Origin: Actinomycetes bacterium
Lineage (GTDB): Bacteria; Actinomycetota; Acidimicrobiia; Acidimicrobiales; Palsa-688
NCBI GenBank assembly: GCA_021788115.1
Contig: JAJYLA010000002.1
Location: 20,476 to 84,475, forward strand
DNA length: 64,000 nucleotides
Direction: 5' to 3'
Position 1 is the first letter of the stretch. Each line of letters opens with the position of its first letter. Below are positions 21,303 through 52,363 of this stretch, piece after piece. Made by a program: the position numbers and the translations under genes. Below the pieces are notes generated by a model, which was not told where the DNA came from, searched no databases, and saw only the letters and a program-made list of their open reading frames with translations.

Positions 21303-21307
21303 CGATT

Positions 21308-22564: not shown

Positions 22565-22576
22565 ACGGAGACCCCG

Positions 22577-24744: not shown

Positions 24745-24746
24745 TC

Positions 24747-36691: not shown

Positions 36692-37474
36692 TCACCTTCC
36701 TTCGAAGCGGGGTTGCCGCTTCTCCACGAACGCCCGCATGCCCTCTTCCCTGTCCTTCGTGCCGCGCAGGAACGCGTGGCACTGGGCCTCGAAGTCGAGG
36801 CCGGTCTGGAGGTCGCTGCTGAGCGCCACCTGCACCGACCGCTTTATACACCCAATCGACAGCGGCGCCCTCCCGGCGATCTGGCGCGCGAGGCGCTCGG
36901 CCTCCGCGACGGCCTCGCCTGCCGGCACCACCGCGTTGACGAGCCCGATCCGCAGCGCCTCCTCCGCGTCGATGCGGTCCGGCAGCAGCATGAGCGCCAG
37001 GGCGGAGCCCGGGCCCACGAGGCGGGTGAGGCGCTGGGTGCCCCCCGCGCCCGGCATGCTGCCGACCGTCGCCTCGGGCAGGCCGAAGCGCGCCGTGGTG
37101 TCGGCGACGCGCAGGTCGCACGCGAGCGCGAGCTCGAGGCCGCCGCCCAGAACGTAGCCGGCCAGGGCGGCGACGACGGGCTTCGACATCCTCTCGATGA
37201 AGGAGAACAGCCCCCGGATGATGTCCCCGAGGGGGTCCCTGCCGCCGCCGGTGTCGTACTCGGCGACCCGGCCCTTGATGTCCGCGCCGACGGAGAAGGC
37301 GCGGGCCTGCCCGGCCAGGACGACCGCCCGGCAGGTCCCGTCCGCGTCGAGCTCGCCCAGGTGGTCCCGGAGCCCCATCAGCATCTCCGGCGTCATCGCG
37401 TTGAGCGCCGACTCGCGGTTGATGGTGACGCGGGCGATCTGGTCGAGGCGCTCGACGACGATCAGCTCGTCCAT
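36692..37474 (-). CDS. Enoyl-CoA hydratase/isomerase family protein, 260 aa
   Basis: This is the internal ATG of track ORF 36692..38314. The sequence contains [50 protein letters not shown] and [14 protein letters not shown]. Confidence 0.8.
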
Positions 37475-38706
37475 GTGCTCGTGCTCCTCTCTCCGGCCGC
37501 GGCCGGTTCCGGCGTCAATTGCACGACCACCCCGGAGTCGAGGAGGTCGCCGATGCTCGCGTCGGAGTAGCCCCCGTCGCGCAGGATCTCGATGCTGTGC
37601 TCCCCCGGCAGCGGGGCCGGGCGTCCCGGCACGGCCGGCGTCGCCGACAGCCTCGCCGGTACCGCCACCCCCGGGACCGGTCCGACCACGGGGTGGTGCA
37701 GCTCGAGCAGGCGCCCGGGCGCGACATCCTCGAGCCGGCGTGCCAGCGACGCGTAGTCGTTTATCTCGGCGCAGAGGATGTCGGCCTCGCCGAGCGCGGC
37801 CAGCCAGTGGGCCGTGGGAAGCGCCCGGAAGCGCGGCGACAGCTCGGCGCGCAGCTCGGCCCGGTTGGCGACCCGGTCGGCGCCGGAGGCGAAACGGGGG
37901 TCGTCGGCGAGCTCGGGGCAGCCGAGCACCGCGACCAGCGCCCGCCACCGGTCGGGCCAGTAGGCGGCGACCATCACGTAGCCGTCCGCCGTCGGGAAGG
38001 CCTCGTTGGGGGCGGCGTAGGGGGCGGCGCTGCCATGCCGGCCGGGCGACGCGCCGCTGGCGAGGAACATCGACAGCGGCACCGTCTGGAACATGAGCAT
38101 CGCGTCCAGCAGGGACACGTCGACGCGCTGGCCTCGTCCGGTGCGCTGGCGGCCGAGGAGGGCGAGGAGCACCCCCTGCACGGCGGCCATGGCGCCCATC
38201 GTGTCCGCTGCAGGCACCCCGACCTTCACGGGGCTGCCGTCCGGCTCGCCGGTGACGCTCATGATCCCGCTCGTCGCCTGGACGATGCCGTCCACGCCGG
38301 GCTTGTCGCGCCATGGCCCGTCCTGCCCGAACGCGCTGATCGAGCAGTACACCAGGCCCGGGTCGTCGGCCGACAGGACGTCGTAGCCGAGCCCCGCCCG
38401 GTCGAGGACGCCGGGGCGGAAGCTCTCGAGCAGCACGTCACAGCCGCGGGCCAGCTGCCGGAGGACGTCGGCACCACCGGGCCGCTTCAAGTCGACGACC
38501 ACCGACCGCTTGTTGCGGTTCATGCCGAAATAGGCGGCCGCCTGGCCCCCCACGAACGGGGGCCCCAGGTTGCGGCCCCACTCCCCGCCAGGGGGGTCCA
38601 CCTTGATGACCTCGGCGCCGTAGTCGCCGAGCACCATCCCGGCGATGGGGCCCGCCGCCCCCTGGGAGAGGTCGAGGACGCGCGTCCCTTCAAGCACTGA
38701 CGGCAT
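37462..38706 (-). CDS. Family III (CaiB/BaiF) CoA-transferase, 414 aa
   Basis: This is the internal ATG of track ORF 37462..38778. The N-terminus is [45 protein letters not shown]. Confidence 0.85.
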
Positions 38707-39295
38707 GCCCGACCAAGCTCCCGTCGAACACCGATCCGTGGGCGGCCGCCATGTCCCATCCCCGCCGCACCGCGGCACGGTTGACCGGGCGGAACGCCTC
38801 GGGCGACCGCTTGGCCACCGCTTCTTCGATGGCGTCGCGGGAGAACCTGCCCGAGACGCACGCGAAAGCGCCGACGCCGATCATGTTCGCGACGACCTTC
38901 GCCCGCAGTTCCGTGCGGGCCGCCGCCTCGAACGGCAGCGCCAGGATCCCCGCCACGCCCGGCTCGACCCGGACGAGGTCGGCGTCGACCAGGGCGGTGC
39001 ACCGGCCCTCGGCGAGCGCCGCCATCACGGCGGGCCGGGTCCGGGCGAACTTGTGCCACGCCTTGTCGTGCAGCGCCAGAAGGATGTCGGGAATGCCGCA
39101 CTGCGGGTTGGCGATCGGCTCGTCCGAGAGGACGACGTCGGCGCGGCTCGCTCCTCCCCGCGCCTCGGGTCCGTACTCCTGGGTGAGCGCGACCGCGTAC
39201 CCCGACGCCAGGCCGGCCTCTGCGACGACCACGGCGGCGAGGGCCAGGCCCTGACCGCCGGCGCCGGCGAAACGCGAGTCGACCCGCCAGGTCAT
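38690..39295 (-). CDS. 2-oxoacid:ferredoxin oxidoreductase gamma subunit, 201 aa
   Basis: This is the internal ATG of track ORF 38690..40180. FAGAGGQGLALAAVVVAEAGLASGYAV..QEYGPEARGGASRADVVLS is typical of the Por/Kor gamma subunit. ATGA overlap with the beta subunit. Confidence 0.8.
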   Translation of the reverse strand: MTWRVDSRFAGAGGQGLALAAVVVAEAGLASGYAVALTQEYGPEARGGASRADVVLSDEPIANPQCGIPDILLALHDKAWHKFARTRPAVMAALAEGRCTALVDADLVRVEPGVAGILALPFEAAARTELRAKVVANMIGVGAFACVSGRFSRDAIEEAVAKRSPEAFRPVNRAAVRRGWDMAAAHGSVFDGSLVGHAVSA

Positions 39296-40128
39296 CGCGC
39301 ACCCCCGACGAGGCCCATCGCCTCTTCCAGGGTGCTCCGCCGGCTGCGGTGGAGAACGCCCGTCGCCAGCGTAGGCCGGGTCCGCTTCTCGGGCACCGGC
39401 CGCAGGGTGGGGCGCGTCGCGAGGTCGGCGTCGACCGCCGGCTCCTCCCGGCCCTGGGCGAAGAGGAGGTCGGCGCCGGTGCCCAGGTGGTTGGTGCGGC
39501 CGAAGTACTCGGTGCAGTCGGTCAGCACCTCGACGAAGGAGAACCCGGGGTGGTCGAGCGCCTCTGCGAAGACCTCTTCGAACAGCCTGGTCCGGAAGCT
39601 CTGCGCCCGCGCCACAAACGTCGCACCGGCCGCCTCCACGAGCCGCGCGGCATCGAAAGGCTCTTCGTGGTTCCCCTCCGGCGACGTGGAGGTGAACGCG
39701 CCCGGCACGGTGGTCGGCGCCAGCTGCCCGCCGGTCATGCCGTAGATCTCGTTGTTGAAGAGCACGCACGTGAGATCGATGTTGCGCCGGGCGGCATGGA
39801 TCAGGTGATTGCCGCCGATGGAGAGGCCGTCCCCGTCGCCGGTGACGACGATCACCTTCAGATCGGGCCGGGCGAGCTTGAGGCCGGTCGCGAACGTGAG
39901 CGGCCGGCCGTGGGTCGTGTGCATGGTGGCGGAGTCGACGTAGCCGACGACGCGGCTCGAGCAGCCGATCCCGGCCACGAACGCGACGCCGTCGAGGGTT
40001 TCGTAGCGACGGGCGAGCACGCGAAGCATCGCGTCGAAGACGATGCCGTGCCCGCAGCCGGGGCAGAGCATGTGCGGCATCATGTCGAGGCGAAGCAGCC
40101 GCTTCTCGGTGGGGGCGGCTTCGATCAT
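39292..40128 (-). CDS. 2-oxoacid:ferredoxin oxidoreductase beta (TPP-binding) subunit, 278 aa
   Basis: LCPGCGHG is present. VVTGDGDGLSIGGNHLIHAARRN is the TPP GDG-X-GGN motif. ATGA overlap with the alpha subunit. Confidence 0.85.
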   Translation of the reverse strand: MIEAAPTEKRLLRLDMMPHMLCPGCGHGIVFDAMLRVLARRYETLDGVAFVAGIGCSSRVVGYVDSATMHTTHGRPLTFATGLKLARPDLKVIVVTGDGDGLSIGGNHLIHAARRNIDLTCVLFNNEIYGMTGGQLAPTTVPGAFTSTSPEGNHEEPFDAARLVEAAGATFVARAQSFRTRLFEEVFAEALDHPGFSFVEVLTDCTEYFGRTNHLGTGADLLFAQGREEPAVDADLATRPTLRPVPEKRTRPTLATGVLHRSRRSTLEEAMGLVGGAR

Positions 40129-41273
40129 GCGAGCACCCCCTCGCGCGTCGCGGCGAGCACGTGCTCGACCAGCTCCTCAACGGAGATGATGCTCCCGCCG
40201 GCCTTCAGGTAGGGCGCCAGGGGCACCTGCCGGCCCGCCACCCTCTCCACCTCCAGCGACCACTGCCCACGGTTCATCTCCGCGGCCACCACCAGCTCCG
40301 CCGGGGCGATCGCCTCCTCGAGGGCGGCGACGGGGACCGGCCACAGCAGCCGCGGGCGCAGCAGGCCCGCCGGGATGCCGCGTTCGCGGAGCACGTCGAC
40401 GGCGGCGCGCGCCATGCGGGCGGTTATGCCGTACGCGATCAGCACGACCGTCGCGTCCTCGAGCCGGTAGCGCTCCGGGGGCAGCGCGTCGAGCGCCGCG
40501 TCGGTCTTCCTCTCGAGCCGTTCGAGGAGCGCAGCGACCGTGGCGGGATCCGACGTGGGGTAGCCCCGCTCGTCGTGCATGAGACCGGTCACGTGGAAGC
40601 GGTAGCCGCGCCCGAAGTCGGGGACCATGGCCACCCCTTCCGCGTTGGGGCGGTACGCGGAGCGGAACGACGGCCCCGGCGGCTCGCCCGGCACCGGGCG
40701 CCCAGCCGAGCCGGCCGGGGGGGCGGCCAGGGTGACGCCTTCGCGCATGTGGCCGATCACCTCGTCGAAGAGCACCACGACCGGGGTGCGCAGCCGCTCC
40801 GCGAGCGCGAAGGCGGTGCCCGTCAGGTCGTGGACCTCCTGCACGCTCGCCGGGGCGACCACCACCGTCGCCCGGTCGCCGTGCGACCCCCAGCGGGCCT
40901 GCATCACGTCGCCCTGGGAGGGGGACGTGGGCAGCCCGGTGCTCGGGCCCCCCCTCATGACGTCCACCACGACGCAGGGAATCTCCGCCAGGGACGCGTA
41001 CCCGAGGTGCTCCTGCATCAGCGTGAAACCCGGCCCGGACGTCGCGGTCATCGCCCGCGCCCCGCCCATGGCGGCGCCGAGCACGGCGCCGAGCGACGCC
41101 ATCTCGTCTTCCATCTGGATGAACACCCCGCCCCGCCGGGGAAGCGCCCGCGCCAGCGCCTCGGCGATCTCCGACGAGGGCGAGATCGGGTACCCGGCGA
41201 AGAACCGGCACCCCGCAGCGAGCGCCCCCAGGGCGCAAGCCTCGTTACCTTGGACCAGCTGCAGCGTGGACAT
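40125..41273 (-). CDS. 2-oxoacid:ferredoxin oxidoreductase alpha subunit, 382 aa
   Basis: This is the internal ATG of track ORF 40125..41762. The N-terminus is MSTLQLVQGNEACALGALAAGCRFFAGYPISPSSEIAE, and ATSGPGFTLMQE is also present. Confidence 0.85.
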   Translation of the reverse strand: MSTLQLVQGNEACALGALAAGCRFFAGYPISPSSEIAEALARALPRRGGVFIQMEDEMASLGAVLGAAMGGARAMTATSGPGFTLMQEHLGYASLAEIPCVVVDVMRGGPSTGLPTSPSQGDVMQARWGSHGDRATVVVAPASVQEVHDLTGTAFALAERLRTPVVVLFDEVIGHMREGVTLAAPPAGSAGRPVPGEPPGPSFRSAYRPNAEGVAMVPDFGRGYRFHVTGLMHDERGYPTSDPATVAALLERLERKTDAALDALPPERYRLEDATVVLIAYGITARMARAAVDVLRERGIPAGLLRPRLLWPVPVAALEEAIAPAELVVAAEMNRGQWSLEVERVAGRQVPLAPYLKAGGSIISVEELVEHVLAATREGVLA

Positions 41274-42093
41274 GTTCCTCCTGGGCCTGATATGAGACGT
41301 CGATGGCGAGGTCCGGGCACAGCCACGAGCACAGCTGGCAGCCGGTGCAGCGCTCTGGGTGGGCGAAGACGGCGACGTCGAAGCGGTCCAGCTCGAGGCA
41401 GCGCTCCGGGCAGACAGCGACGCAGATGTTGCACCCCTTGCACCATGCCGCCTCGATGCTGACCAGGGCCGGCGGGCGGGCGACGACGGGGGCCTGCCGC
41501 AGTCGGGTGGGGGACGCCGGCTTGTGCGCCCTGCCGCGCTCGAACGCGGTGATGTTCTCCTCGACGGTCTTCGGCGGAACCCACGAGCGGATCGCCGTGT
41601 GCCACGCCTCAGCCGGGAAGGGCAGCCGCGCGGCCACGGCGCCGAGGAGCACGGTCTGGGCCACCGCGGCTCTCGTGGCGGCAGCGTCGCCCGCCACGGC
41701 AGCGGTGTCGATCGCCACGACCCCCCTCGGGGACGCGTCCGCGGCCGGATAGGCGAGGGCACCGCCCCGGTGGTCGCTCATGGACGCGGGGGGGAGCCGC
41801 CGCTCGGTGCTGACGAAGGCGACACCCTCGTCGGCGAGGTAGGGCAGGGCCCGCAGGCCCTCCTCCCACTCGAAGGCGACGACCCAGTCGGCCGTTCCCG
41901 GCTCGACGGTCACCGAGTGGACGTCGTGGCCGAACCGCACATGGCTGACGACGGTCCCGCCCCTCTGGGACATGCCGTGGACCTCGGACTTCTTCACGTC
42001 GAACCCGGCGTCGAGCAGCACCTGGGCGATGACGTTGCTCGCCATGATCACGCCCTGGCCGCCGACACCCGCGACGACGATGTTGCCCGACAC
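41245..42093 (-). CDS. Indolepyruvate:ferredoxin oxidoreductase beta subunit (IorB-like) fused in frame to a 2x[4Fe-4S] ferredoxin (OFOR delta-like) domain, about 282 aa
   Basis: The frame of track ORF 41245..42519 has no stop between the IorB-like part (VSGNIVVAGVGGQGVIMASNVIAQVLLDAGFDVKKSEVHGMSQRGG...) and the C-terminal CKGCNICVAVCP...CTGCQLCSWLCP. I prefer the GTG at 42093 because AAGAGG lies 8 nt upstream. The GTG at 42141 overlaps the iorA stop. Confidence 0.7.
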   Translation of the reverse strand: MSGNIVVAGVGGQGVIMASNVIAQVLLDAGFDVKKSEVHGMSQRGGTVVSHVRFGHDVHSVTVEPGTADWVVAFEWEEGLRALPYLADEGVAFVSTERRLPPASMSDHRGGALAYPAADASPRGVVAIDTAAVAGDAAATRAAVAQTVLLGAVAARLPFPAEAWHTAIRSWVPPKTVEENITAFERGRAHKPASPTRLRQAPVVARPPALVSIEAAWCKGCNICVAVCPERCLELDRFDVAVFAHPERCTGCQLCSWLCPDLAIDVSYQAQEEHVHAAAGPR

Positions 42094-42137
42094 AGGAGAC
42101 GCCTCTTTCTCGCTGGTCGGCTCGGCCGTCCTGGCGC

Positions 42138-43949
42138 TCACAGCGCGCCTCCGGCGGCCGCCGCGGGGACTTCCTCGTGGACCGACACGATGGCGCGGTT
42201 CGGGCAGAGCTGGGCGCAGACGGTGCATCCGGAGCACAGCGATGCGTCGATGCGCACCCGGGGAGGCGACACGCCGGCGTCCGTATCCCACGCGATGGCC
42301 GGACAGCCGAGCCCCATGCACGCCTGGCAGCCGTCGCACAGCTCCGCGCGGACCGTGTAGACGGGTCCGCGGCTCTTGACCGGGGCTTCGACGCACGCCC
42401 GGGTGGTCACCACGACCGAAACCCCGCGCCGTCCCGTCGCCTCCCGGATGGCCCTGCGGGTGGCGGCGAGGTCGTAGGGGTCGACGACCGTCACGGAGTG
42501 CACGCCGGCGGCCCGGCACAGCTCGACGATGTCGGCACGCGGTAGCGTCTCCCCGCGGATCCCGACCGACACGCCGGGGTGGGGCTGCCCGCCGGTCATG
42601 GCGGTGATGCCGTTGTCGAGCACGACGACGGTGACGTCCGCTTGGCGGTGCACGGCGTCGATCAACGCGGGCACCCCGGCGTGGAGGAACGTCGAGTCGC
42701 CGATGGTGGCGACCACGGGCTGGCCCGGCACGCCGGCGAGCGACAGGCCTACCGCCATCCCGATGCTCGATCCCATGGCCAGGCAGGTGTCCATCGCCGC
42801 GATCGGCGGCCCCGCGGCGAGCGTGTAGCAGCCGATGTCGCCGGCCACGACGGCGTCGAGCTCACGCAAGGCGAGGAAGGGCGTCGAGTGGGGGCAGCCC
42901 GGGCACAGCACGGGTGGGCGTGGGCCTGCGGCGGGAGCCGGCCGGGCGGCCGCCGGCGGGCGCTGGTCCAGGAGGCCGGCCTTCTCGAAACCCTTGCGGA
43001 CCTCTTCGGGCGAGAGCTCCCCGTCCCGGGGGAACCATTTCTTGCCTTCGACGGCGATGCCGAGCCTGCGGACCTCGTCCTCGAGGTAGGGCTCGAGCTC
43101 TTCGACGACGATCAGCCTTTGCACCTGGGCGGCGAAGCGGCGGATCAGGTCCTCAGGCAGGGGGAACGCGACGCCGAGCTTGAGCACGCTCGCCTCGGGC
43201 AGCACTTCGCGCACGTTGTGGTAGGCGATGCCGGAGGTGATGACGCCGACGTCGCGCGAGCGGATCTCCTGCGCGTTGAGAGGGCTGTGCTCCGCCCACT
43301 CGCGCATCCTCTCCAGGCGTTCGATGTGCACGGCGTGGCGTCTGCGGGCGAACGCCGGCAGCATGACGTACTTGCTCGGGTTGCGCTCGAAGCCGGACGC
43401 CGCAGGGCGCTCGAGTCGGTCTCCCGCCTCGAGCGAGGAGCGGGCGTGGGAAGTCCGTGTCGTGGTGCGCAGCATGCAGGGCAGGTCCCACTCCTCGCTC
43501 ACGTCGAACGCGGCGCGGACGAAGTCGTAGGCCTCCTGGCTGTCCGCCGGCTCGAACACCGGGATGCCGGCGAATCGGCCGACGTAACGGTTGTCCTGCT
43601 CGTTTTGCGAACTGTGCATCCCGGGGTCGTCGGCGCTCATCACGACGAGGCCGCCCCTGACCCCGAGGAAGGCGCTCGTCATGAGGCTGTCCATCGCCAC
43701 GTTGACCCCGACGTGCTTCATCGTGACCAGGACACGCGCTCCCGCGAGGGCGGCGCCCACGGCGACGTCGAGGGCCACCTTCTCGTTGGTCGCCCACTCC
43801 ACGTCCACGTCGCCCGCCGGCGAGATGCGCGCCAGGTACTCGAGAACCTCGGTGCTCGGCGTACCCGGGTAGCCGGTCGCCACCGAAATGCCGGCGTGGT
43901 AGGCGCCGAGGGCGATCGCCTCGTTCCCCGACAGCAGCGTCGAGCTCAC
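42138..43949 (-). CDS. iorA: Indolepyruvate (arylpyruvate):ferredoxin oxidoreductase alpha subunit, 603 aa
   Basis: The sequence contains LLSGNEAIALGAYHAGISVATGYPGTPSTE, LCPGCPH, IGDSTFLHAG and a C-terminal CDGCQACMGLGCP...CSGCTVCAQLCP. The GTG start overlaps the upstream stop (GTGA). Confidence 0.8.
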   Translation of the reverse strand: MSSTLLSGNEAIALGAYHAGISVATGYPGTPSTEVLEYLARISPAGDVDVEWATNEKVALDVAVGAALAGARVLVTMKHVGVNVAMDSLMTSAFLGVRGGLVVMSADDPGMHSSQNEQDNRYVGRFAGIPVFEPADSQEAYDFVRAAFDVSEEWDLPCMLRTTTRTSHARSSLEAGDRLERPAASGFERNPSKYVMLPAFARRRHAVHIERLERMREWAEHSPLNAQEIRSRDVGVITSGIAYHNVREVLPEASVLKLGVAFPLPEDLIRRFAAQVQRLIVVEELEPYLEDEVRRLGIAVEGKKWFPRDGELSPEEVRKGFEKAGLLDQRPPAAARPAPAAGPRPPVLCPGCPHSTPFLALRELDAVVAGDIGCYTLAAGPPIAAMDTCLAMGSSIGMAVGLSLAGVPGQPVVATIGDSTFLHAGVPALIDAVHRQADVTVVVLDNGITAMTGGQPHPGVSVGIRGETLPRADIVELCRAAGVHSVTVVDPYDLAATRRAIREATGRRGVSVVVTTRACVEAPVKSRGPVYTVRAELCDGCQACMGLGCPAIAWDTDAGVSPPRVRIDASLCSGCTVCAQLCPNRAIVSVHEEVPAAAAGGAL

Positions 43950-45238
43950 CGGGGCACCAGGGTGGAGCTGGCCGGGTGGGCGGCGGCCTCGAGGGCCTCG
44001 ATGATGTGGGTGGCTTCCTCGTCGGCGAGCACGTGGCTGGTGTGCTTCGCCGCTTCGAGGATGGCCTCCGTCCGCTCGGGCGTCGGGTCGAACCCGTGCT
44101 CGCGCAGCCAGAACAGCACGTTCGACTTACCGCTCATCGGTCCGACCGAGATGTGCTGGCGCCTCCCGACCAGGGACGCGGGAACCGCGCTGTACACCCG
44201 GTCCGCGAGCCACGCGTCACCCTTGGTGTAGGCCTTGGCGACCGCTGCGGCGTGCACGCCGGTGCTGGTGGCGAAGGCGTCCTCGCCGAGGACGGGGTAG
44301 TTGTTCGGGACGGCGACGCCGGTCATCTCGCTCGCCACCCTGCAGTACTCGGGGAGCCGGGTCAGATCCACCTGCTTCCAGCCGAGAAGGGCGACGTTGA
44401 CCAGGACGAGGTCGAGCGCTGTGTTGCCGACGCGCTCGCCGATGCCGAGGGCGCAGCCGTGCACCCGGGTCGCACCCGCAGAGAGGGCGGCGAGCGCGTT
44501 GACGACGTCGAGGCCCCGGTCGCGATGGCCGTGCCAGTCGATGGCCGTTCCGTCGAAGCCGTGGCTGGACAGCTGCTCGGCGAGGAAATGCACGATGCGT
44601 TGCACCCCGCCGGGGGTCGCCTGGCCCACCGTGTCGGAGATGCAGAACCGGCTGGCCCCGGCGTTCGCGGCGGCCAGGTAGAGAGCCTCGATGTCCTCGC
44701 CGCGGGCCCTCGTGGTGTCCTCGGTCACGAACATCACATCCATGCCGGCCTTCACGGCGTAGCCGACCGCTTCCTCGGTGATCCGCACCAGGGTCGGGAT
44801 ATCCCAGCCCTCCACCCACTGGCGGATCGGGCTCGACCCGATGAACAGCGCCGCCTGTATGGCCACGCCGGATCGCTCCTGAGCCTCACGGATCGGGTCG
44901 ATGTCGTGGACGTGGGTGCGGCCGGCACAGTTCGGCTCGATCGGGAGGTGTTCGTCGGCGATGGTCTTGGCCAAGGTGACGACGTCGTCGAGGAGACCCT
45001 CGCTCGCGCCGGCGTAGCCGATGTCCGCGCACGTCACCCCGACGGGCACCAGGGATCGAAGGAAGACCTGCTTCTGCTCGACCGTCGGCTGCAGCACCGA
45101 TGGGCCCTGAAGCCCGTCCCGGAGCGTTTCGTCGTTGAGGATGATCTCCGCGGGCGGGTCGAGCGTGCAGCTGCGCGGCGCCAGTTCGTTCCAGTCGAAG
45201 ATGAGATCGGCGATGTCCGGATCTCCCGTGTTGTCCAC
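43946..45238 (-). CDS. 2-isopropylmalate synthase / homocitrate synthase family (DRE-TIM metallolyase) protein, about 430 aa
   Basis: LNDETLRDGLQ and WHGHRDRGLDVVNALAALSAGATRVHGCALGIGERVGN are HxH metal-site motifs. I placed the start at the GTG at 45238 because GGGAGGAA lies about 6 nt upstream. The track's Met at 45286 adds 16 Arg-rich residues. Confidence 0.75.
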   Translation of the reverse strand: MDNTGDPDIADLIFDWNELAPRSCTLDPPAEIILNDETLRDGLQGPSVLQPTVEQKQVFLRSLVPVGVTCADIGYAGASEGLLDDVVTLAKTIADEHLPIEPNCAGRTHVHDIDPIREAQERSGVAIQAALFIGSSPIRQWVEGWDIPTLVRITEEAVGYAVKAGMDVMFVTEDTTRARGEDIEALYLAAANAGASRFCISDTVGQATPGGVQRIVHFLAEQLSSHGFDGTAIDWHGHRDRGLDVVNALAALSAGATRVHGCALGIGERVGNTALDLVLVNVALLGWKQVDLTRLPEYCRVASEMTGVAVPNNYPVLGEDAFATSTGVHAAAVAKAYTKGDAWLADRVYSAVPASLVGRRQHISVGPMSGKSNVLFWLREHGFDPTPERTEAILEAAKHTSHVLADEEATHIIEALEAAAHPASSTLVPR

Positions 45239-45287
45239 CCCAGGTTCCTCCCTCTGCCGGCGCGCCGCTCGCGTCGTGCACGCCATC

Positions 45288-45309
45288 TCACTGTGATGCA
45301 GTGACTATA
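45288..45309 (-). promoter_or_regulatory. Candidate -10 element (TATAGT on the minus strand) fused to the palindrome TCACTG-N5-CAGTGA, upstream of the synthase/OFOR operon
   Basis: Plus-strand tcactg lies at 45288-45293 and cagtga at 45299-45304. Minus-strand TATAGT is plus-strand 45304-45309. This sits in the only AT-rich gap (45239-45362) of the 17-kb co-directional block. No good -35 was seen. Confidence 0.3.
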
Positions 45310-45362
45310 CGTAGACCACTGAACTTTTTATTACGTGAGAGAGTTTAGGTTAGACTGCCCGG

Positions 45363-45923
45363 TCAGTCAAGGTCTTGGGCAGGGTTTCCCTCGGCCTCTG
45401 CCAGGGCGGCGAGCAGCGGCTCGATGCCCCCGTGGCGGAGCACGTCGAGCATCGGCTCGGGGATCCGGTCGGCCTCGAGCTCGCGCCGGACCGACCCTTC
45501 GGACCCCTGCTGTTCGACGGTCACGACGCCGGCGACGATGTAGACGTCGACCACGTCGCCGTCGGCCACCGCGGCGCTGACGCCCGGGCAGCTGAGGGCA
45601 GGCAAGCCGATGGCGATCGCGTTGCGGGCGAAGATCCGGGCGAGCGAGTCGGCCACCACCGCAGCGACACCGAGGTCCTTGAGGTGCTGGGGGGCGGACT
45701 CCCGGCTCGAGCCGCACCCGAAGTTCGGTCCCGCGACGACGATGTCGCCGGCGCGAACCTGACCGGCGAACTCGGGGCGGGCCGACTCGAGCACGTGGCG
45801 CAGCCGCACCTCGGGCGGGTCGTGGACGTACTGTCCCGGCGAGAGCATGTCGGTGCTGATGTCCGCGCCGAACAGCCATGCCCGGCCCGCGAGACGGGCG
45901 ACGTCACCGCTGGGATTGCTCAC
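45363..45923 (-). CDS. Aconitase-family small subunit (LeuD / homoaconitase small-subunit-like), 186 aa
   Basis: GPNFGCGSSRESAP is the LeuD signature. The GTG start overlaps the large-subunit stop (GTGA). Confidence 0.8.
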   Translation of the reverse strand: MSNPSGDVARLAGRAWLFGADISTDMLSPGQYVHDPPEVRLRHVLESARPEFAGQVRAGDIVVAGPNFGCGSSRESAPQHLKDLGVAAVVADSLARIFARNAIAIGLPALSCPGVSAAVADGDVVDVYIVAGVVTVEQQGSEGSVRRELEADRIPEPMLDVLRHGGIEPLLAALAEAEGNPAQDLD

Positions 45924-47197
45924 CGCACGTCCTCCTCTTTCCCCGCCTCCTCCTCGTCGGCCGCGGCGAAGCTACGGGGATCGGTGATCTCACCGGCCAG
46001 CGCGGAGGCGGCGGCCGTCGCCGGCGAGCCCAGGTAGATCTCGGCCTCGGGGCTTCCCATGCGACCCCGGAAGTTCCGGTTGTGCGTGCCGAGGCAGCGC
46101 TCGCCGGGCGCCAGCAGCCCCATGTGGCCGCCGAAGCACGGGCCGCAGCCCGGTCCCTCAACGATCGCCCCCGCCTCCACGAGATCGGAGAGGATCCCCT
46201 CTGCGAGCGCCTGGCGGTACACCTCCGACGACGCCGGGGTGACCACCATCCTCACGCCGGACGCGATCCGTCGCCCGCGCATGATCCGGGCGGCCTGGCG
46301 GAGGTCCTCGAGGCGCCCGTTGGTGCAGGAGCCGAGAAACACCTGGTCGAGGCGCACGCCGGCGACTTCGTCGACCCCGACGACGTTCTCGACGTGGTGG
46401 GGTACGGCCACCTGGGGCGCGAGGGACCCCAGGTCGACGGTGTGGGTCGCCGCGTACGACGCCCCGGGGCGCATGGTGTCGACGTCGCCCGCCGGGAACA
46501 GCGAGAACTTCGCCCCCATCTCGACGCCCATGTTGGCGACCGTCATTCGCTCGGGCAAGCCGAGGGTCGCCACACCGGGGCCGCCGTGCTCGACGGAGCG
46601 GTACTGCGCCTCGGCGGAGCCCACCTCGCGCATCAGGTAAAGGACGAGATCCTTCGCCGTCACCATCGGCTGCAGCCGGCCCTCCAGCACGACCAGCACC
46701 GTCTCGGGGACCTTGAACCACAGGCGCCCGGTGGCCAGCGCATACGCCATCTCGGAGCTGCCGATCCCGCAACCGGCAGCCCCGAGCGCCCCGTAGGTGG
46801 TGCTGTGGGAGTCCGTCCCCACGACGAGGTCCCCGGGCCGGAAGCGGCCCTCCTCCACCATCACCTGGTGGCAGATTCCCCGGCCGACTTCGAAGAACGC
46901 CTCGATGCCGTAGCGCTTCACGAGGCGCCTGGCCGCCGCCTGGTGCTCGGCCGCGGCGACCGAGGGGGCGGGAACCATGTGGTCGAACACCACCGACGCC
47001 CGGCTCGGGTCGTGGAGCCGGCGGACCCCGACACGCTGGAGCATTCCGAGCACGTCGGCGGCGAAGATGTCGTGCATCATCATGGCGTCGACCTCCGCCA
47101 CGACGTATTCGCCGGGGACCACGCGCGGCACGCCGGCAGCCCGCGCGAGGACCGACTCCGCCGCCGTCATCGGCGCGTCCGCGATGGGCCCGCCCAT
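45920..47197 (-). CDS. Aconitase-family large subunit (LeuC / homoaconitase large-subunit-like), 425 aa
   Basis: The sequence contains GTDSHSTTYGALGA, FLGSCTNGRLEDL and GCGPCFG, which supply the three Cys ligands of the dehydratase [4Fe-4S] cluster. The start may be Met10 (47170). Confidence 0.8.
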   Translation of the reverse strand: MGGPIADAPMTAAESVLARAAGVPRVVPGEYVVAEVDAMMMHDIFAADVLGMLQRVGVRRLHDPSRASVVFDHMVPAPSVAAAEHQAAARRLVKRYGIEAFFEVGRGICHQVMVEEGRFRPGDLVVGTDSHSTTYGALGAAGCGIGSSEMAYALATGRLWFKVPETVLVVLEGRLQPMVTAKDLVLYLMREVGSAEAQYRSVEHGGPGVATLGLPERMTVANMGVEMGAKFSLFPAGDVDTMRPGASYAATHTVDLGSLAPQVAVPHHVENVVGVDEVAGVRLDQVFLGSCTNGRLEDLRQAARIMRGRRIASGVRMVVTPASSEVYRQALAEGILSDLVEAGAIVEGPGCGPCFGGHMGLLAPGERCLGTHNRNFRGRMGSPEAEIYLGSPATAAASALAGEITDPRSFAAADEEEAGKEEDVR

Positions 47198-47198
47198 C

Positions 47199-47963
47199 TC
47201 AGAGCATGCTCAGGCCACCGTTGACGCTCAACGTCTGGCCCGTGATGTAGTCGGCGTGGGAAGAGGCGAAGAACAGGACGGCCTGGGCGACCTCCTCGGG
47301 GGTCCCGACCCGGCCGAACGGGATCGAGCGGATGATCGCCGACATCAGCCGCTCGTGGCCCTCGCTCACGTCGGCGAGCATCGCCGTGTCGGTCAGGCCC
47401 GGGGCGACACAGTTGACGTTGATGCCCTGGCGCGCGGTCTCGCGGGCGAGCCCCTTGGCGAAGGCGATCACGCCGCCCTTGGCGCCCGAGTAGACGACCT
47501 CGCCGCTCGATCCGACCCGCCCGGCGTCGGAGGCGACGAAGACGAGCTTGCCCGCGCCCCTTTCGATCATGTGGGGCAGCACGGCGTGCGCGCAGGCGAG
47601 GTGGCCGCGCAGGTTGACGGCGATCACCCTGTCCCACAGTGTCTCGTCCGTCTCGATGAACGGCATGACCTTGTCCCACCCGGCGTTCGAGACGAGCACG
47701 TCGATGCCGCCGAAGTGCCCGAGGGCCGCTTCCACCATGGCGCGCACCGCGGCGGTGTCGGCGACGTCGACCTCGACCGGAAGCGCGTTCCCGCCCGCCG
47801 ACGCGATCTCCTCGGCCACCGTTTTCGCCCGGTCAGCCGACAGATCCCCGATCACCACCCCGCCGCCCTCCTGGGCGATGCCGAGGGCCACGGCGCGGCC
47901 GATCCCGCTGCCGGCGCCCGTGACGACCGCCGTCCTGCCGCCGAACCTGCCGTCACCTGTCAT
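47199..47963 (-). CDS. SDR-family dehydrogenase, second BadH-like paralogue, 254 aa
   Basis: The sequence contains VVTGAGSGIGRAVA, SNAGWDKVMPF, ASDAGRVGSSGEVVYSGAKGGVIAFAKGLARETARQGINVNCVAPGLTDTAML and GQTLSVNGGLSM. Confidence 0.7.
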   Translation of the reverse strand: MTGDGRFGGRTAVVTGAGSGIGRAVALGIAQEGGGVVIGDLSADRAKTVAEEIASAGGNALPVEVDVADTAAVRAMVEAALGHFGGIDVLVSNAGWDKVMPFIETDETLWDRVIAVNLRGHLACAHAVLPHMIERGAGKLVFVASDAGRVGSSGEVVYSGAKGGVIAFAKGLARETARQGINVNCVAPGLTDTAMLADVSEGHERLMSAIIRSIPFGRVGTPEEVAQAVLFFASSHADYITGQTLSVNGGLSML

Positions 47964-47965
47964 TC

Positions 47966-48757
47966 CTACCGTCCTTTCAGCACACCGTTTGAGTCGAGTT
48001 CACGCACGATAGCCAGCTGGTCCGGGGTCGGGGCCACCGTGGTGGGCACCGGGTCACGCACGATCAGGTCGAAGCCGGTGGCGTCGCGAACCTCTTCCAC
48101 GGTCACACCCGGGTGCACCGACACCAGGCGCATCCGCAGGCTATCGGGGTCGAAGTCCATCGTGGCGAGGGACGTCACCACCAGTGCGGGTCCCCCGCCG
48201 GCCAACCCGGCCGCCGACCACTCCTCGGGCCCGCCGAGGAACCCGGGGCCGCCGAGGAAGTCCACCCGCTCCACGAATGTCCGCCGGTTGTGCGACATCG
48301 AGTAGATGAGCACCCGTCCCACACGCGAGAGGAACGGCAATCCCACCGTCCCGGGGCCGCGAAGGCTCGGGCGGGACCAGTCCCCCACCGAGACGAGGTT
48401 GCAGTTCCCGTGGGCGTCGATCTGGAGACCGCCGGCAAAGAAGACGCTGAACACGTCGGCACGGCCCTCCATCAGCACCACATCACCAAGGGGCAGCGCG
48501 GTGTCCGCACGCAGAAGGTCGTAGTCGCAGCACGAAGGAACCACGGGATCGAGGTGGGGGTTCACCGAGGAGGTCCCGCCGGCGACGTACCACAGGCCGG
48601 GCGCGGTGGTGAGCTGGGCGAGCCGGCAGGCCACCTGGGGCAGAGCGCTGGCGGTGCCCATCACCGCGACATCGTCGTCGCGAAGACGCGCGGCCAGCTC
48701 TACCGCCATCAGCTCGCCCACCGACCAGTTGCCGGCGGCGCCGTCACCCGCCGTCAC
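47966..48757 (-). CDS. Class I CoA-transferase subunit B (glutaconate CoA-transferase GctB-like), 263 aa
   Basis: This is the C-terminal part of track ORF 47966..49879. The GTG at 48757 overlaps the subunit A stop (GTGA). The sequence contains ELMAVELAARLRDDDVAVMGTASALPQVA and FFAGGLQIDAHGNCNLV. Confidence 0.7.
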   Translation of the reverse strand: MTAGDGAAGNWSVGELMAVELAARLRDDDVAVMGTASALPQVACRLAQLTTAPGLWYVAGGTSSVNPHLDPVVPSCCDYDLLRADTALPLGDVVLMEGRADVFSVFFAGGLQIDAHGNCNLVSVGDWSRPSLRGPGTVGLPFLSRVGRVLIYSMSHNRRTFVERVDFLGGPGFLGGPEEWSAAGLAGGGPALVVTSLATMDFDPDSLRMRLVSVHPGVTVEEVRDATGFDLIVRDPVPTTVAPTPDQLAIVRELDSNGVLKGR

Positions 48758-49686
48758 CGGCGCGTCGCCTCCCCGGGTGTCGCCGACGCCGCAGCGGCCG
48801 CCGGCGCGTACCGCAGGGCGCCGACCCTGCCGGCTGTCGCCGCCCGGTATCCGTCCTCGCTCTGGCCGGTGACCAGCTCCTCGATGTAGGACGCCACCCC
48901 GGTGGCGTCGCGCGCTCGTGCCAGGTACGTCATCAGGTGCTCCTCGTCGTAGCGGTAGGCCCCGTGCGAGGCCGTGGGGTGGCACCCTCCGGGCGCCTCG
49001 ATGACAGCCTGTACCAGGAAGCCCGGGATCGTGGTCCCGGGCGCGTGGCGGGCGATCTCCCCGAAGCCGACGACCTCCTCCACCTGCACGAGCACCGTCT
49101 TGGCGGCGAGCGCCATCGAGCGGTCGACGAAGTGGGCTCCCGCGATCACGGCGTTGCCGCGCTCGTCGGCCTGCAGGGCGTGGAGCAGCGCGACGTCGGG
49201 CCGGAGGGGCGCGCCCGACAGCACCCGCGCGCCCGTGAAGGGGTCCTCCACCATGCGGTAGTACTCCGGGTTCACCTTCGACACGTCGGAGATCTCGAGT
49301 CCGACGGGCAGGGGGACGTAGGGCAGTCCGCCCGCTCCGGCGTACAGGCCATGGGTGATGTACGCCTCGTCGCACTCGAGGACCCGGATCGATCCCGACT
49401 CGACGGCCCGCCGGAAGCAGGGGGCGAGCCCGAGGTGCTCGAACCCCACGTAGGACGTGGCGATCTCGTCGACCAGGCCGGCGCCGATCAGGAGATCGGC
49501 GTTGAGCGCCCCGCACGGGCTGGTGAGGAGGCGCCGCACGCGGCGGTGCTGGCGGATGACCTCCCTGACCAGCGCCATCGCGTTGTTGTGGAGGTGCATG
49601 CCGCCGACCGCCAGAAGCCCGACACCGTCGGGCACGAACCGCTCGACGGCGGACTCCAGACTGACCACTTTGCTCACGTGTGCCAC
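48754..49686 (-). CDS. Class I CoA-transferase subunit A (glutaconate CoA-transferase GctA-like), 310 aa
   Basis: KVVSLESAVERFVPDGVGLLAVGGMHLHNNAMALVREVI is typical of the AtoD/GctA N-terminus. Confidence 0.7.
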   Translation of the reverse strand: MAHVSKVVSLESAVERFVPDGVGLLAVGGMHLHNNAMALVREVIRQHRRVRRLLTSPCGALNADLLIGAGLVDEIATSYVGFEHLGLAPCFRRAVESGSIRVLECDEAYITHGLYAGAGGLPYVPLPVGLEISDVSKVNPEYYRMVEDPFTGARVLSGAPLRPDVALLHALQADERGNAVIAGAHFVDRSMALAAKTVLVQVEEVVGFGEIARHAPGTTIPGFLVQAVIEAPGGCHPTASHGAYRYDEEHLMTYLARARDATGVASYIEELVTGQSEDGYRAATAGRVGALRYAPAAAAASATPGEATRR

Positions 49687-50393
49687 CTGCTTGTTCTAGC
49701 CGACCTGGCCCGGCGTGTCTCTGGCGGCGGCCCCGCCACGGCGGCCCTCGGGGGGGCCTCGCCCGCGTTGAGCAGATACGCGAGGACAGCGCTGGTGCAG
49801 GCTCGCTTGTACCACTCATGGCGGCTCTCCCAATCGTCCTCCTGCAGCCACTGGAAGTGCAGCCCCTCGATGATCGCACGCACCGCGGTCGCGGCCTCGT
49901 CGACGTCGGCCACCCGGAAGCTCCCGTCCGCCAGGCCGCCGCGTATGACCTCGGCGTACACCTCGTTGACCGTCGAGCGGAAGGCGGCGCTCAGCTGCTC
50001 GAATCCTGTGACGCGCGCGGCGTGGTCGATGAGGTCCAGGTAGGTGAGATAGAAGCGGCGGCTCTGCTCCGGCCCGAGGAAGATCGTCTCGATCATCGTC
50101 CTCACCGACTCCTCGGGCGTGCTCGTCCGGCTCACCTCCTGGCGGACCCGGTCGCCGATCTCGTCGAGCACCCAGGACATCGTGGCCATCACCAGTTCGT
50201 CCTTGGTCTTGAAGTAGTACAGGATGATGCTCTTGCTGACCCCGGCTGCGGCGGCGATCTCGTGGACGGGTACGCGCTGCACGCCCTTCTCCGCGAAGAC
50301 GCGGTAGGCACAGCGCACGATGTGCACCTGCCGGGCGGAGAGCGCGCCGCCCGGGCGCGGCTCCCCGGGTCGCCGGGACTCCTCGACTGTCAC
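49674..50393 (-). CDS. TetR-family transcriptional regulator, 239 aa
   Basis: IVRCAYRVFAEKGVQRVPVHEIAAAAGVSKSIILYYFKTKDELV is a TetR HTH. It overlaps the CoA-transferase A start by 13 nt. Confidence 0.85.
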   Translation of the reverse strand: MTVEESRRPGEPRPGGALSARQVHIVRCAYRVFAEKGVQRVPVHEIAAAAGVSKSIILYYFKTKDELVMATMSWVLDEIGDRVRQEVSRTSTPEESVRTMIETIFLGPEQSRRFYLTYLDLIDHAARVTGFEQLSAAFRSTVNEVYAEVIRGGLADGSFRVADVDEAATAVRAIIEGLHFQWLQEDDWESRHEWYKRACTSAVLAYLLNAGEAPPRAAVAGPPPETRRARSARTSRWHT

Positions 50394-50424: not shown

Positions 50425-50901
50425 TCACCGCGCCCGCAGGGCCGGGTCGAGCTGCCCCTCGAGCGTCGAGGCGACCTGGCTGAGGAAGGAGCGCACCGTC
50501 GACTGGGCCAGGTGGTGCAACAGGGCCGTATCGAGGGCCCGCCCCAGGTCTCCGAAGGGGGGGGCGTAGGAGGCCGACAGGGTCAGACGGCACACGTCGG
50601 GCCCGAGCGGAGCCAGCTCGAGGTCGCCGTTGAGCGCCGGGAAGAGCGCCGAGTGCTCGGTCGCCTCCCACGCCAGCGGCACCACGACAGCGTCTCCCCG
50701 CTGGCGCGCCGGGCCGAGCCGCACGCGCACCTCCCGCGTCAGGCCACGCCCCGGCCCACGGGGCCCGACCCGCAGCCGCAGGGTCTCGCCGTCGTCCGCC
50801 GCCGTGTTCGCCAGAGGTGCCAACCAGGCGTCGTCGCCCGTGAAACTCCCCCGAACTGCAGCGAGCGGCAGGGCTACATCGACGAAATCCTCGACAAACA
50901 C
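50425..50901 (-). CDS. Hypothetical protein, 158 aa; same domain type as the C-terminal extension of the Rrf2 regulator (possibly an SRPBCC-like ligand-binding fold)
   Basis: The composition is protein-like. By-eye collinear similarity to Rrf2 residues from about 150 to 309 covers three segments: FVEDFVDVALPLAAV vs LADVVQVELPEVEV, NGDLELAPLGPDVCRLTL vs EGEVTVGAVDPFRSELRV, and STVRSFLSQVASTLE vs RGLRSLLRHLARGLE. Confidence 0.5.
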   Translation of the reverse strand: MFVEDFVDVALPLAAVRGSFTGDDAWLAPLANTAADDGETLRLRVGPRGPGRGLTREVRVRLGPARQRGDAVVVPLAWEATEHSALFPALNGDLELAPLGPDVCRLTLSASYAPPFGDLGRALDTALLHHLAQSTVRSFLSQVASTLEGQLDPALRAR

Positions 50902-52310: not shown

Positions 52311-52363
52311 CGCCCGTCCCTCCCTGGTCTCGTGCGGGCTACCACGCTGAGCATCCCCCAAAC

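Follow-up and report, generated by a model that had tools for sequence, protein, structure and literature searches.

Organization of the locus

The window analyzed here is a stretch of 64,000 nucleotides (G+C content 71%) from an actinobacterium of the class Acidimicrobiia and belongs to contig C134 of a metagenome-assembled genome (MAG) of 3.58 Mb, which is 94% complete and comprises 238 contigs. It contains genes resembling those of leucine biosynthesis, namely a LeuC/LeuD-like pair and a synthase of the isopropylmalate synthase (IPMS)/homocitrate synthase (HCS) family, in the midst of genes for the conversion of CoA-esters and aromatic compounds. Here, we describe this leucine-like set, its conservation in other genomes and the pathway to which it may belong.

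Gene positions were derived from the G+C content at third codon positions, from reading-frame analysis and from Pfam and NCBIfam profile searches. They form a long string of one direction on the minus strand that runs from a PaaK-like ligase (52361) down to a PrpF-family gene (33189). In the direction of transcription the features of main concern, including short-chain dehydrogenase/reductase (SDR) and 2-oxoacid:ferredoxin oxidoreductase (OFOR) genes, are:

51015-52361, minus strand: PaaK-like arylacetate-CoA ligase (Pfam AMP-binding and AMP-binding_C_2; TIGR02155 PaaK 461 bits, cut-off 646)
45920-47197, minus strand: LeuC-like large subunit, 425 aa (Pfam Aconitase 312 bits; NF001614 516 bits, cut-off 385)
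45363-45923, minus strand: LeuD-like small subunit (Aconitase_C; TIGR02087 "LeuD/DmdB family" 146 bits, cut-off 109)
45239-45362, minus strand: AT-rich gap of 124 nt with an imperfect palindrome and a ribosome-binding site ahead of the synthase
43946-45238, minus strand: IPMS/HCS-family protein, 430 aa (HMGL-like PF00682 150 bits)
42138-43949, minus strand: IorA, indolepyruvate/arylpyruvate:ferredoxin oxidoreductase (IOR) alpha subunit (TIGR03336 696 bits, equivalog cut-off 650.9)
41245-42141, minus strand: IorB fused to a 2x[4Fe-4S] ferredoxin domain
40125-41273, 39292-40128 and 38690-39295, minus strand: second OFOR, alpha, beta and gamma subunits (NF006412 487 bits, cut-off 411)
37462-38706, minus strand: family III CoA-transferase (Pfam CoA_transf_3 407 bits)
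36692-37474, minus strand: enoyl-CoA hydratase, a generic crotonase
35937-36683, minus strand: SDR (closest solved structure BbsD 7pcs_B, 245 bits)
35513-35920, minus strand: DUF35 zinc-ribbon/OB protein (Pfam zf-ChsH2 and OB_ChsH2_C)
34378-35529, minus strand: SCP-x-type thiolase (closest solved structure BbsB 7pxp_C, 275 bits)
33189-34373, minus strand: PrpF-family isomerase (Pfam PrpF PF04303 318 bits)

The equivalog cut-offs of NCBIfam served to judge whether the synthase, the LeuCD pair, the thiolase and the proteins resembling PrpF and PaaK belong to named clades. All of these remain under the cut-offs, and only IorA clears its own.

Several of these genes are tightly packed. The synthase stop overlaps the iorA start in a GTGA overlap (CGGTGAGC, read letter by letter), LeuC and LeuD are joined by another GTGA overlap, and a single base separates the stop of the SDR gene at 47199-47963 from the LeuC start (TGA-G-ATG). 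This layout agrees with a preliminary description of the region, which had placed the LeuC-like gene, the LeuD-like gene, the gap and the synthase in this order, with the synthase overlapping iorA, with SDRs as the neighboring redox enzymes (47199-47963 and 35937-36683) and with two OFORs behind the synthase (IorA/IorB, then alpha/beta/gamma). Its statements that the synthase lacks the long regulatory domain of LeuA and that no LeuB or homoisocitrate dehydrogenase gene is present were also borne out: in Pfam the HMGL-like domain is the sole match of the 430-aa protein, with no LeuA_dimer domain, and contig C134 has no Iso_dh match, those of the genome being located on contigs C127, C106 and C99. 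Four further HMGL-like genes exist in the genome: C206 encodes a long LeuA, C106 a CimA-like protein whose gene is separated by about 1 kb from one of the LeuB type, C30 a short paralogue and C25 a protein similar to HMG-CoA lyase. A whole-genome search also detected a bacterial-type LeuC on C159 and two aconitases.

The gap at 45239-45362 is the sole sizeable break in the gene string. Its imperfect palindrome CAGTGGTCTACGTATAGTCACTG is centred on TACGTA and lies directly 5' of the ribosome-binding site of the synthase, and the gap is a candidate internal promoter or operator.

Conservation of the gene set

The proteins of the window were compared by tblastn with 86 related loci (L numbers below), and the comparison was extended to the regions of ±20 kb round the synthase in ten other carriers from a sample of 201 genomes of the class (G numbers). 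The full set is present in each of the seven class genomes whose contigs are long enough, its parts being shuffled in one of them (G079). The order in the class is PrpF–thiolase–DUF35 divergent from synthase–IorA–IorB/ferredoxin–OFOR alpha/beta/gamma–CoA-transferase–hydratase–SDR–LeuC–LeuD. Sulfobacillus and another Bacillota MAG show the order LeuC–LeuD–PaaK–synthase–IorAB–OFOR–CoA-transferase–hydratase–SDR–DUF35–thiolase with a PrpF-like gene directly next to it. For the loci from Armatimonadota and Candidatus Thermofontivivens the part LeuCD–PaaK–synthase–IorAB–OFOR was seen within the stretch compared, and a PrpF-like gene is present in both genomes. In the loci from Sulfobacillus, the other Bacillota MAG, Armatimonadota and Candidatus Thermofontivivens it is an orthologue of the PaaK-like ligase that sits between LeuD and the synthase. 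This gene arrangement is not a matter of chance, because the same arrangement is found in many unrelated MAGs.

Partial versions of the set exist as well. L014 (Thermoleophilia) and L029 (Acidobacteria) have kept synthase, LeuCD, CoA-transferase, hydratase and SDR with no OFOR nearby, and L014 additionally has the thiolase, DUF35 and PrpF genes. Loci of Anaerolineales contain IorAB–synthase, followed in one locus by LeuCD, and the one Anaerolineales genome searched contains no gene like the PrpF-family (Mii-like) isomerase. A LeuB-type dehydrogenase is never part of the conserved set, an Iso_dh partner being absent from every related cluster, and an acyl-CoA dehydrogenase (BbsG type) is missing from the conserved set in the window and in seven complete related clusters. 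Finally, there are solitary synthases (L011, L015, L017-L080, e.g. L034, L044, L050, L057 and L058, and L083 and L084), whose neighbors, once clustered and annotated, turned out to be unrelated housekeeping genes such as those for SpoIIE phosphatase, M28 peptidase, rhomboid, PhoU and citrate synthase and thus offer no hint at a function.

The condensing enzyme

The open reading frame of the synthase spans 43946-45286, but translation starts more probably at the GTG at 45238 than at the start of the frame, because the ribosome-binding site GGGAGGAA precedes this codon and a database protein of 430 aa has the same start. The protein was compared with the clade models for LeuA/IPMS, CimA, NifV, LysS and archaeal LEU1. 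The best of all named-clade scores was obtained with the IPMS model (183 bits, cut-off 517); the others were 172 (cut-off 485), 162 (463), 160 (414) and 105 bits (450). Judged by these profiles, the synthase lies outside every named clade. Aldolase models gave only 47-60 bits. The R-D motif (ETLRDG) and the HxH metal motif (DWHGHRD), which are kept throughout the family, align with those of the solved structures 6ktq (HCS) and 3rmj (IPMS), and the histidine behind the barrel in STGVHAAAV aligns with AGVHVAGV of 6ktq and SGIHQDGV of 3rmj. We take this G-x-H histidine of the post-barrel subdomain to be catalytic in the condensation.

The substrate pocket was read by alignment to 6ktq and 3rmj, structures which were also used in a study of the benzylmalate synthase HphA (PMC12961565). 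In HphA five pocket positions are occupied by A73/D157/A159/M186/S242, the corresponding residues being H/R/T/S/H in HCS and L/E/S/N/E in IPMS, and the choice of substrate is controlled by A73, which is His in HCS and Leu in IPMS (PMC12961565). The synthase of the window has A/M/V/C/H and thus neither the IPMS nor the HCS residue set. Opposite its gate alanine (...NCAGR...) the alignment has His105 in 6ktq and the leucine of SLSR in 3rmj. The position of the HCS arginine and the IPMS glutamate is occupied by methionine and the next one by valine, and the arginine that binds the distal carboxylate in HCS is absent. The pocket is hydrophobic at places that are polar in IPMS and HCS. Of 84 synthase homologues, 77 share the signature A/M/V/C/H. 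Such a pocket would fit a bulky non-polar 2-oxoacid, which is suggestive but no proof.

There are thousands of metagenomic proteins with 50-80% identity to the synthase, and those with a name are called "LeuA family protein" or "2-isopropylmalate synthase". Homologues occur in Actinomycetota (including Acidimicrobiia), Bacillota (Sulfobacillus), Armatimonadota, Chloroflexota, Acidobacteriota, Gemmatimonadota and others. A phylogenetic tree in which three paralogues from the genome of the window served as outgroups places the synthases linked to the gene set in one cross-phylum clade (support 0.99) that is distinct from the LeuA and CimA-like proteins of this genome. In four loci of Acidobacteriota (L036, L039, L053, L075) a synthase homologue is located 1.5-7 kb downstream of genes with 35-40% identity to BcrB/C-like subunits of the window, and these loci also hold a large crotonase and a BadH-like SDR. 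The BcrB/C-like genes in question could encode a benzoyl-CoA reductase (BCR) or a 2-hydroxyacyl-CoA dehydratase.

The LeuC/LeuD-like pair and the PrpF-family isomerase

The three cysteines for the Fe-S cluster, C291, C351 and C354, are present in the LeuC-like protein (GSC291TNGR, GC351GPC354). It clears the subfamily models NF001614, TIGR01343 and TIGR02086 and is thus of the archaeal LeuC/HacA type, but it remains under the equivalog cut-offs of LEU2 (423 against 611 bits) and HacA_Meth (413 against 550 bits). The LeuD-like protein clears only the broad subfamily model TIGR02087. Eight of the nine cluster genomes contain a LeuC orthologue with at least 54% identity and the ninth one with 49%, whereas the best LeuC match does not exceed 46% in 12 genomes with a solitary synthase. 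We propose that the LeuCD-like pair acts as benzylmalate dehydratase only and not as an isomerase.

An isomerization could be the task of the PrpF-family protein. In Eubacterium barkeri the isomerase Mii works beside the LeuCD-like hydratase DmdAB, which is mirrored in the name "LeuD/DmdB family" of the small-subunit model TIGR02087. The PrpF-family protein of the window is closer to Mii (3g7k, 274 bits) than to PrpF (2pvz, 190 bits) and shares 45% identity with Mii over 361 positions. The lysine of TSKG and the cysteine of NCGNISA are conserved in the alignment and correspond to the pair reported by Velarde et al. 2009 to be catalytic in Mii. The reaction of Mii in nicotinate fermentation is the interconversion of methylitaconate and dimethylmaleate, and itaconate is a further substrate (PMC4720413). 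The PrpF/Mii-like gene is present in 8 of the 9 cluster genomes but in none of 12 solitary-synthase genomes. From these similarities we propose that it encodes a benzylmaleate/phenylitaconate isomerase. An archaeal-type HMG-CoA synthase behind thiolase and DUF35, as in an Aib-like isovaleryl-CoA route, was considered too and had to be rejected, since the third gene belongs to the PrpF family.

A putative Bbs-like β-oxidation module

The genes between the second OFOR and the isomerase resemble those that convert benzylsuccinate in toluene degradation (Bbs). The thiolase finds its best solved relative in the benzoylsuccinyl-CoA thiolase BbsB (7pxp_C) with 275 bits, the next one reaching 231 bits. 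The lone SDR gene of this part (35937-36683) encodes a protein that is closer to BbsD than to every FabG and is conserved in the clusters at 60-81% identity. For the DUF35 protein the best match in PDB is 6esq_E (34.6 bits), followed as second best by BbsA (7pxp_A, 32.4 bits). The closest relative of the family III CoA-transferase is SUGCT (9br7, 271 bits), a succinyl-CoA:dicarboxylate transferase. Because none of the Bbs-like proteins clears an orthologue cut-off, we propose that they work like those of the Bbs system, not that they are Bbs proteins.

Two ferredoxin-dependent oxidoreductases

With 185 bits (cut-off 237) the beta subunit of the first OFOR remains under the cut-off of the IorB models, and it carries the extra ferredoxin domain. 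Models of PadG and PadI (cut-offs 700) gave only 79 and 32 bits with the OFOR subunits. The second OFOR consists of alpha, beta and gamma genes and has no delta gene; in L081 and L086 the gamma position is occupied by a gamma gene of pyruvate:ferredoxin oxidoreductase (POR). Across the window, L001-L012, L081-L086 and the G039-G215 regions the C-terminal 2x[4Fe-4S] fusion of IorB is present in 22/22 loci where the second OFOR follows and in 0/5 loci with IorAB but without a second OFOR. Because the fusion tracks the second OFOR, and because the latter is devoid of a delta gene, the ferredoxin domain on IorB is most simply understood as the delta subunit of the second OFOR, which would be tethered to IOR in this way. 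Such a tether suggests that electrons released when one 2-oxoacid is oxidized pass directly to IOR for its reductive reaction. Most likely the second OFOR oxidizes a central 2-oxoacid, 2-oxoglutarate or pyruvate, and thereby supplies low-potential electrons; with pyruvate as substrate it would also yield acetyl-CoA and CO2. The 2-oxoglutarate:ferredoxin oxidoreductase that serves benzoyl-CoA reductase in Thauera is a precedent for the former, and IOR-type enzymes of anaerobes and methanogens carboxylate aryl acids reductively. IorAB most likely acts ahead of the synthase and not after it. In L085 (9425-14233) IorA was called as two genes (POR_N apart from TPP_enzyme_C/Fer4), and the alpha subunit of the second OFOR likewise (POR_N apart from PFOR_II), which means either that the genes are truly split or that the assembly contains frameshift errors.

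Link to aromatic catabolism

The window also contains the following genes outside the minus-strand string:

15090-18472, plus strand: 4-hydroxybenzoyl-CoA-reductase-like (Hcr-like) Mo and FAD subunits
18515-19420, plus strand: PaaX-like regulator
20095-21168, minus strand: large crotonase-family gene
21221-25559, plus strand: class I BCR genes

Together with the PaaK-like ligase of the string and a second PaaK-like ligase these genes give the window an aromatic character. The Hcr-like Mo and FAD genes, followed by the PaaX-like regulator, lie inside an aromatic island of the anaerobic type. In 8 of 10 class relatives Hcr-like genes are found directly beside the PrpF-like gene and in L081 beside LeuCD. 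Eight cluster genomes gave a BCR-like match, and at least 6 of them have such a gene on the contig that carries the cluster.

The association extends to whole genomes. Among 201 evenly sampled species genomes of the class, 11 contain the synthase and 12 BCR. All 11 synthase carriers have BCR compared with 1 of 190 non-carriers (Fisher p = 3e-17), and BoxB, the aerobic benzoyl-CoA epoxidase, occurs in 9/11 carriers against 5/190 non-carriers (p = 9e-11). The genome of the window itself encodes BoxB (C75:2883-4277, well above cut-off) besides class I BCR, and the organism seems to be equipped for both oxic and anoxic breakdown of benzoyl-CoA. A PaaA/PaaC ring epoxidase was not found in this genome, the lone weak match being inside the BoxB match. 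BoxB, BCR and the cluster are present on one contig in G001, G191, G195 and G039.

Proposed pathway

On balance, and with moderate confidence, we favor the reading that the leucine-like genes are part of a catabolic set which would convert compounds of the phenylacetate or tyrosine type to (4-hydroxy)benzoyl-CoA and succinyl-CoA. Every step was inferred from homology together with gene context. The PaaK-like ligase would activate an arylacetate to arylacetyl-CoA, which IorAB working in the reductive direction would carboxylate to an arylpyruvate; transamination of phenylalanine or tyrosine is an alternative source of the latter. The synthase would then condense arylpyruvate with acetyl-CoA to 2-benzylmalate. 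Such an exergonic condensation would pull the carboxylation, which fits the translational coupling (GTGA) of the synthase with iorA. In the next steps LeuCD would dehydrate 2-benzylmalate to benzylmaleate, and the Mii-like PrpF protein would shift the double bond so that it becomes conjugated with the ring, giving benzylidenesuccinate (phenylitaconate). The family III CoA-transferase could use succinyl-CoA to form phenylitaconyl-CoA, from which the enoyl-CoA hydratase, the BbsD-like SDR and the BbsB-like thiolase with its DUF35 partner would produce aroyl-CoA and succinyl-CoA. A para-hydroxyl group would subsequently be taken off by the Hcr-like enzyme, and BCR (or Box) would open the ring.

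Since this pathway would depart from the logic of leucine biosynthesis already at the alkylmaleate stage, it needs no LeuB-type dehydrogenase. The model gives each conserved gene a role and requires no enzyme from outside the cluster. By analogy a precedent can be named for every step, namely HphA for the condensation, HphCD or DmdAB for the dehydration, Mii for the isomerization and Bbs for the remainder.

More tentatively, and with less confidence than in the catabolic role as such, we put forward that the set represents a so far undescribed "benzylmalate route", a formal anaerobic α-oxidation of arylacetyl-CoA without a molybdenum enzyme, in which electrons would come from the second OFOR via the ferredoxin domain fused to IorB and the side chain would end up as succinyl-CoA, and which would have a wide distribution among uncultured members of Actinomycetota, Bacillota and other phyla. 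The central 2-oxoacid might also supply CO2 and acetyl-CoA for carboxylation and condensation. Searches of the full-text literature retrieved no description of such a pathway; it would be a new pathway assembled from known enzyme families.

Evaluation of the alternatives

Several points weigh against the proposed catabolic route. Homology and gene context are the common basis of all its steps, and some homologies are limited. The thiolase reaches only 297 bits with the NCBIfam BbsB model (cut-off 750) and is thus not an orthologue, the CoA-transferase is nearer to SUGCT than to BbsE/F (9fn0, 140 and 132 bits), and the enoyl-CoA hydratase, conserved in the cluster as it is, is generic. Beyond the gate alanine the pocket of the synthase is unlike that of HphA (M/V/C/H versus D/A/M/S). 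The second OFOR is merely auxiliary in the model, yet it is tightly conserved and tethered to IorB, and a reductive IOR would demand electrons of very low potential. The BCR-like matches of Bacillota are only 38-39% identical and possibly belong to other enzymes of that family. Moreover, the co-occurrence tests with BCR and BoxB ignore phylogeny; the carriers, however, span at least six families. Finally, solitary synthases with the same pocket and 49-67% identity are found in Vicinamibacterales, Gemmatimonadota and Ktedonobacteria, and all 12 solitary-synthase genomes searched lack both the Mii-like gene and the LeuC orthologue (8 of them have BoxB above cut-off). The synthase therefore also works outside the proposed pathway, and it may be a shared point of entry from which different routes lead on.

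The preliminary description had offered two schemes. In one of them a 2-oxoacid is built by condensation with acetyl-CoA, isomerized and oxidatively decarboxylated by an OFOR to an acyl-CoA. Made specific, this becomes a homologation with subsequent β-oxidation and is the main rival of our reading, although an unlikely one. Arylpyruvate and acetyl-CoA would yield 2-benzylmalate, LeuCD would convert this to 3-benzylmalate, a dehydrogenase would form 2-oxo-4-phenylbutyrate and the second OFOR 3-phenylpropionyl-CoA, its electrons feeding the reductive IOR through the ferredoxin domain fused to IorB; acyl-CoA dehydrogenase, hydratase, SDR and thiolase would then act on 3-phenylpropionyl-CoA with benzoyl-CoA and acetyl-CoA as products. 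The second OFOR would thus obtain a direct role, and the fusion of ferredoxin to IorB wherever both occur would be accounted for. The homologation of benzylmalate has a precedent in the HphABCD pathway (PMC12961565), the IorAB–synthase–LeuCD loci of Anaerolineales, with one genome searched that has no Mii-like gene, would be in line with it, and solitary synthases could draw on housekeeping LeuCD and LeuB. As originally written this scheme is nevertheless not supported, because the β-decarboxylating and acyl-CoA dehydrogenases it requires are found in 0/7 complete clusters (with no Iso_dh on the contig), and because the always present Mii-like isomerase and family III CoA-transferase are left without a role. 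It also does not explain why in L014 and L029 the remainder of the set persists with no OFOR nearby, or why thiolase and SDR are closest to BbsB and BbsD, which act on succinyl-branched substrates. Genomes with the synthase but without the other genes may follow this scheme. A different substrate for the same logic seems still less probable: propionyl-CoA or another R-CH2-CO-CoA would pass through carboxylation to the 2-oxoacid, condensation with acetyl-CoA, dehydration, isomerization and β-oxidation to yield R-CO-CoA and succinyl-CoA in an assimilation or α-oxidation bypass for aliphatic acids. The chemistry suits any R-CH2 group, the Met, Val and Cys of the pocket do not prove an aromatic substrate, and solitary homologues occur in many aerobic soil phyla, but IorA clears the IOR equivalog cut-off, the PaaK-like and PaaX-like genes of the window and the Hcr-like genes adjoining the cluster in most relatives point to aromatic compounds, and so does the co-occurrence with BCR.

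In the other scheme of the preliminary description the direction is reversed. LeuCD would hydrate an aryl- or alkyl-itaconate or -malate, the synthase, acting as a DRE-TIM lyase, would release 2-oxoacid and acetate, and IorAB would form the acyl-CoA, similar to the Mii–DmdAB–Dml segment of nicotinate fermentation. Mii and a LeuCD-like hydratase run that way in E. barkeri, lyases occur in the DRE-TIM fold and IOR normally works oxidatively. This cleavage is nonetheless very improbable. The synthase groups with the Claisen-condensing IPMS and HCS enzymes, keeps the histidine of GVH and scores poorly with aldolase models. Both the IPMS-type condensation and the thiolase would have to run backwards, the Bbs-like module would become a biosynthetic condensation, the PaaK-like ligase would be without a role, and the product arylacetyl-CoA would still need a route to benzoyl-CoA. 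The least credible alternative, already contradicted by the data, is an ordinary biosynthesis of leucine, isoleucine or lysine that merely lies beside catabolic genes. In its favor speaks family membership only. Housekeeping paralogues (LeuA on C206, the CimA-like and LeuB-type genes on C106, LeuC on C159) exist elsewhere, which means that the window does not hold the only leuA/leuC-type genes of the genome; furthermore no dehydrogenase gene is present, all the equivalog cut-offs are missed, the pocket lacks the residues of IPMS and HCS, and the synthase gene occurs in only 11 of 201 class genomes, all of them BCR carriers. The view that these are not housekeeping genes is thus supported, and so is the catabolic aromatic setting, both for the locus, where the set sits among such genes, and genome-wide in its co-occurrence with aromatic and benzoyl-CoA catabolism.

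Relation to known systems

The proposed benzylmalate pathway shares parts with several known systems but coincides with none of them. In the known anaerobic phenylacetate route of Thauera and Aromatoleum phenylacetate is processed by PaaK/PadJ, the phenylacetyl-CoA:acceptor oxidoreductase PadBCD and the phenylglyoxylate:acceptor oxidoreductase PadEFGHI. Both routes start from arylacetyl-CoA, end with benzoyl-CoA and include an enzyme of the OFOR family. In the Pad route, however, a molybdenum enzyme oxidizes the α-carbon and C1 is lost as CO2, whereas the proposed route would add CO2 and acetyl-CoA and regain the side chain as succinyl-CoA. We know of no route from phenylacetate, phenylalanine or tyrosine to benzoyl-CoA in anaerobes without the molybdenum enzyme PadBCD.

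With the cyanobacterial homophenylalanine enzymes HphA/HphCD/HphB the set has in common an IPMS-family enzyme followed by a LeuCD-type one, and the gate alanine is found in both synthases (PMC12961565), the activity of the window enzyme with arylpyruvate being a prediction. The Hph enzymes, however, serve a biosynthesis whose last step is catalyzed by a LeuB-type dehydrogenase, whereas the window set belongs to CoA-ester catabolism with BCR and has no such dehydrogenase; the two synthases also disagree at the remaining four positions of the pocket, as given above. The pair of a PrpF-family delta-isomerase and a LeuCD-like hydro-lyase resembles Mii and DmdAB of E. barkeri, which jointly interconvert dicarboxylates of the itaconate, maleate and malate types. 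Here the proposed direction is the opposite one (malate to maleate to itaconate type), the substituent would be benzyl instead of methyl, and the malate-type acid would be made by an IPMS-type synthase, while in E. barkeri it is cleaved by a lyase of the isocitrate lyase family. From the 2-methylcitrate cycle the combination of an aconitase-family dehydratase with a PrpF-family isomerase acting on an unsaturated intermediate is known (AcnD/PrpF), but the large subunit of the window is of the LeuC/HacA type (57 bits with the AcnD model, cut-off 1420) and the isomerase is nearer to Mii (274 versus 190 bits).

As in the Bbs system of toluene degradation, family III CoA-transferase, crotonase, SDR and DUF35/SCP-x thiolase are encoded in one operon, and the same products are proposed. 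In contrast with Bbs there is no BbsG, a single SDR gene is present instead of two and the BbsB cut-off is missed; the enoyl intermediate would be made as free acid by dehydration and isomerization, and the substrate would derive from arylacetate or arylpyruvate and not from the addition of fumarate to toluene.

If the proposal is true, it offers a concrete answer for anaerobes devoid of PadBCD, composed of modules from amino-acid chain extension, nicotinate fermentation and toluene degradation, each of the three being known only in other settings. It would also be a third physiological use of IPMS/LeuCD-type enzymes, a catabolic one that stops at the alkylmaleate, and an OFOR would be used reductively in a degradative pathway. 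The locus may further exemplify two OFORs that are wired together by a fused ferredoxin domain. Functions could then be assigned to the thousands of entries named "LeuA family protein" or "2-isopropylmalate synthase", and genome-scale models that read leucine biosynthesis from them would be corrected.

The segment upstream of LeuC

Between the PaaK-like ligase and LeuC the gene string contains a further segment with the following members:

50425-50901, minus strand: 158-aa protein with no assigned function
49674-50393, minus strand: TetR
48754-49686 and 47966-48757, minus strand: class I CoA-transferase A and B
47199-47963, minus strand: BadH-like SDR

The possibility that TetR, class I CoA-transferase A/B and BadH-like SDR (47199-50393) form one unit with LeuCD was dismissed, as these genes never adjoin LeuC in the other loci examined. 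They probably represent a separate module of the lower benzoyl-CoA pathway. In L086 the TetR/class I CoA-transferase/BadH-like SDR trio lies apart from LeuC, is encoded by the opposite strand and has genes for an acyl-CoA dehydrogenase and a 349-aa crotonase as neighbors.

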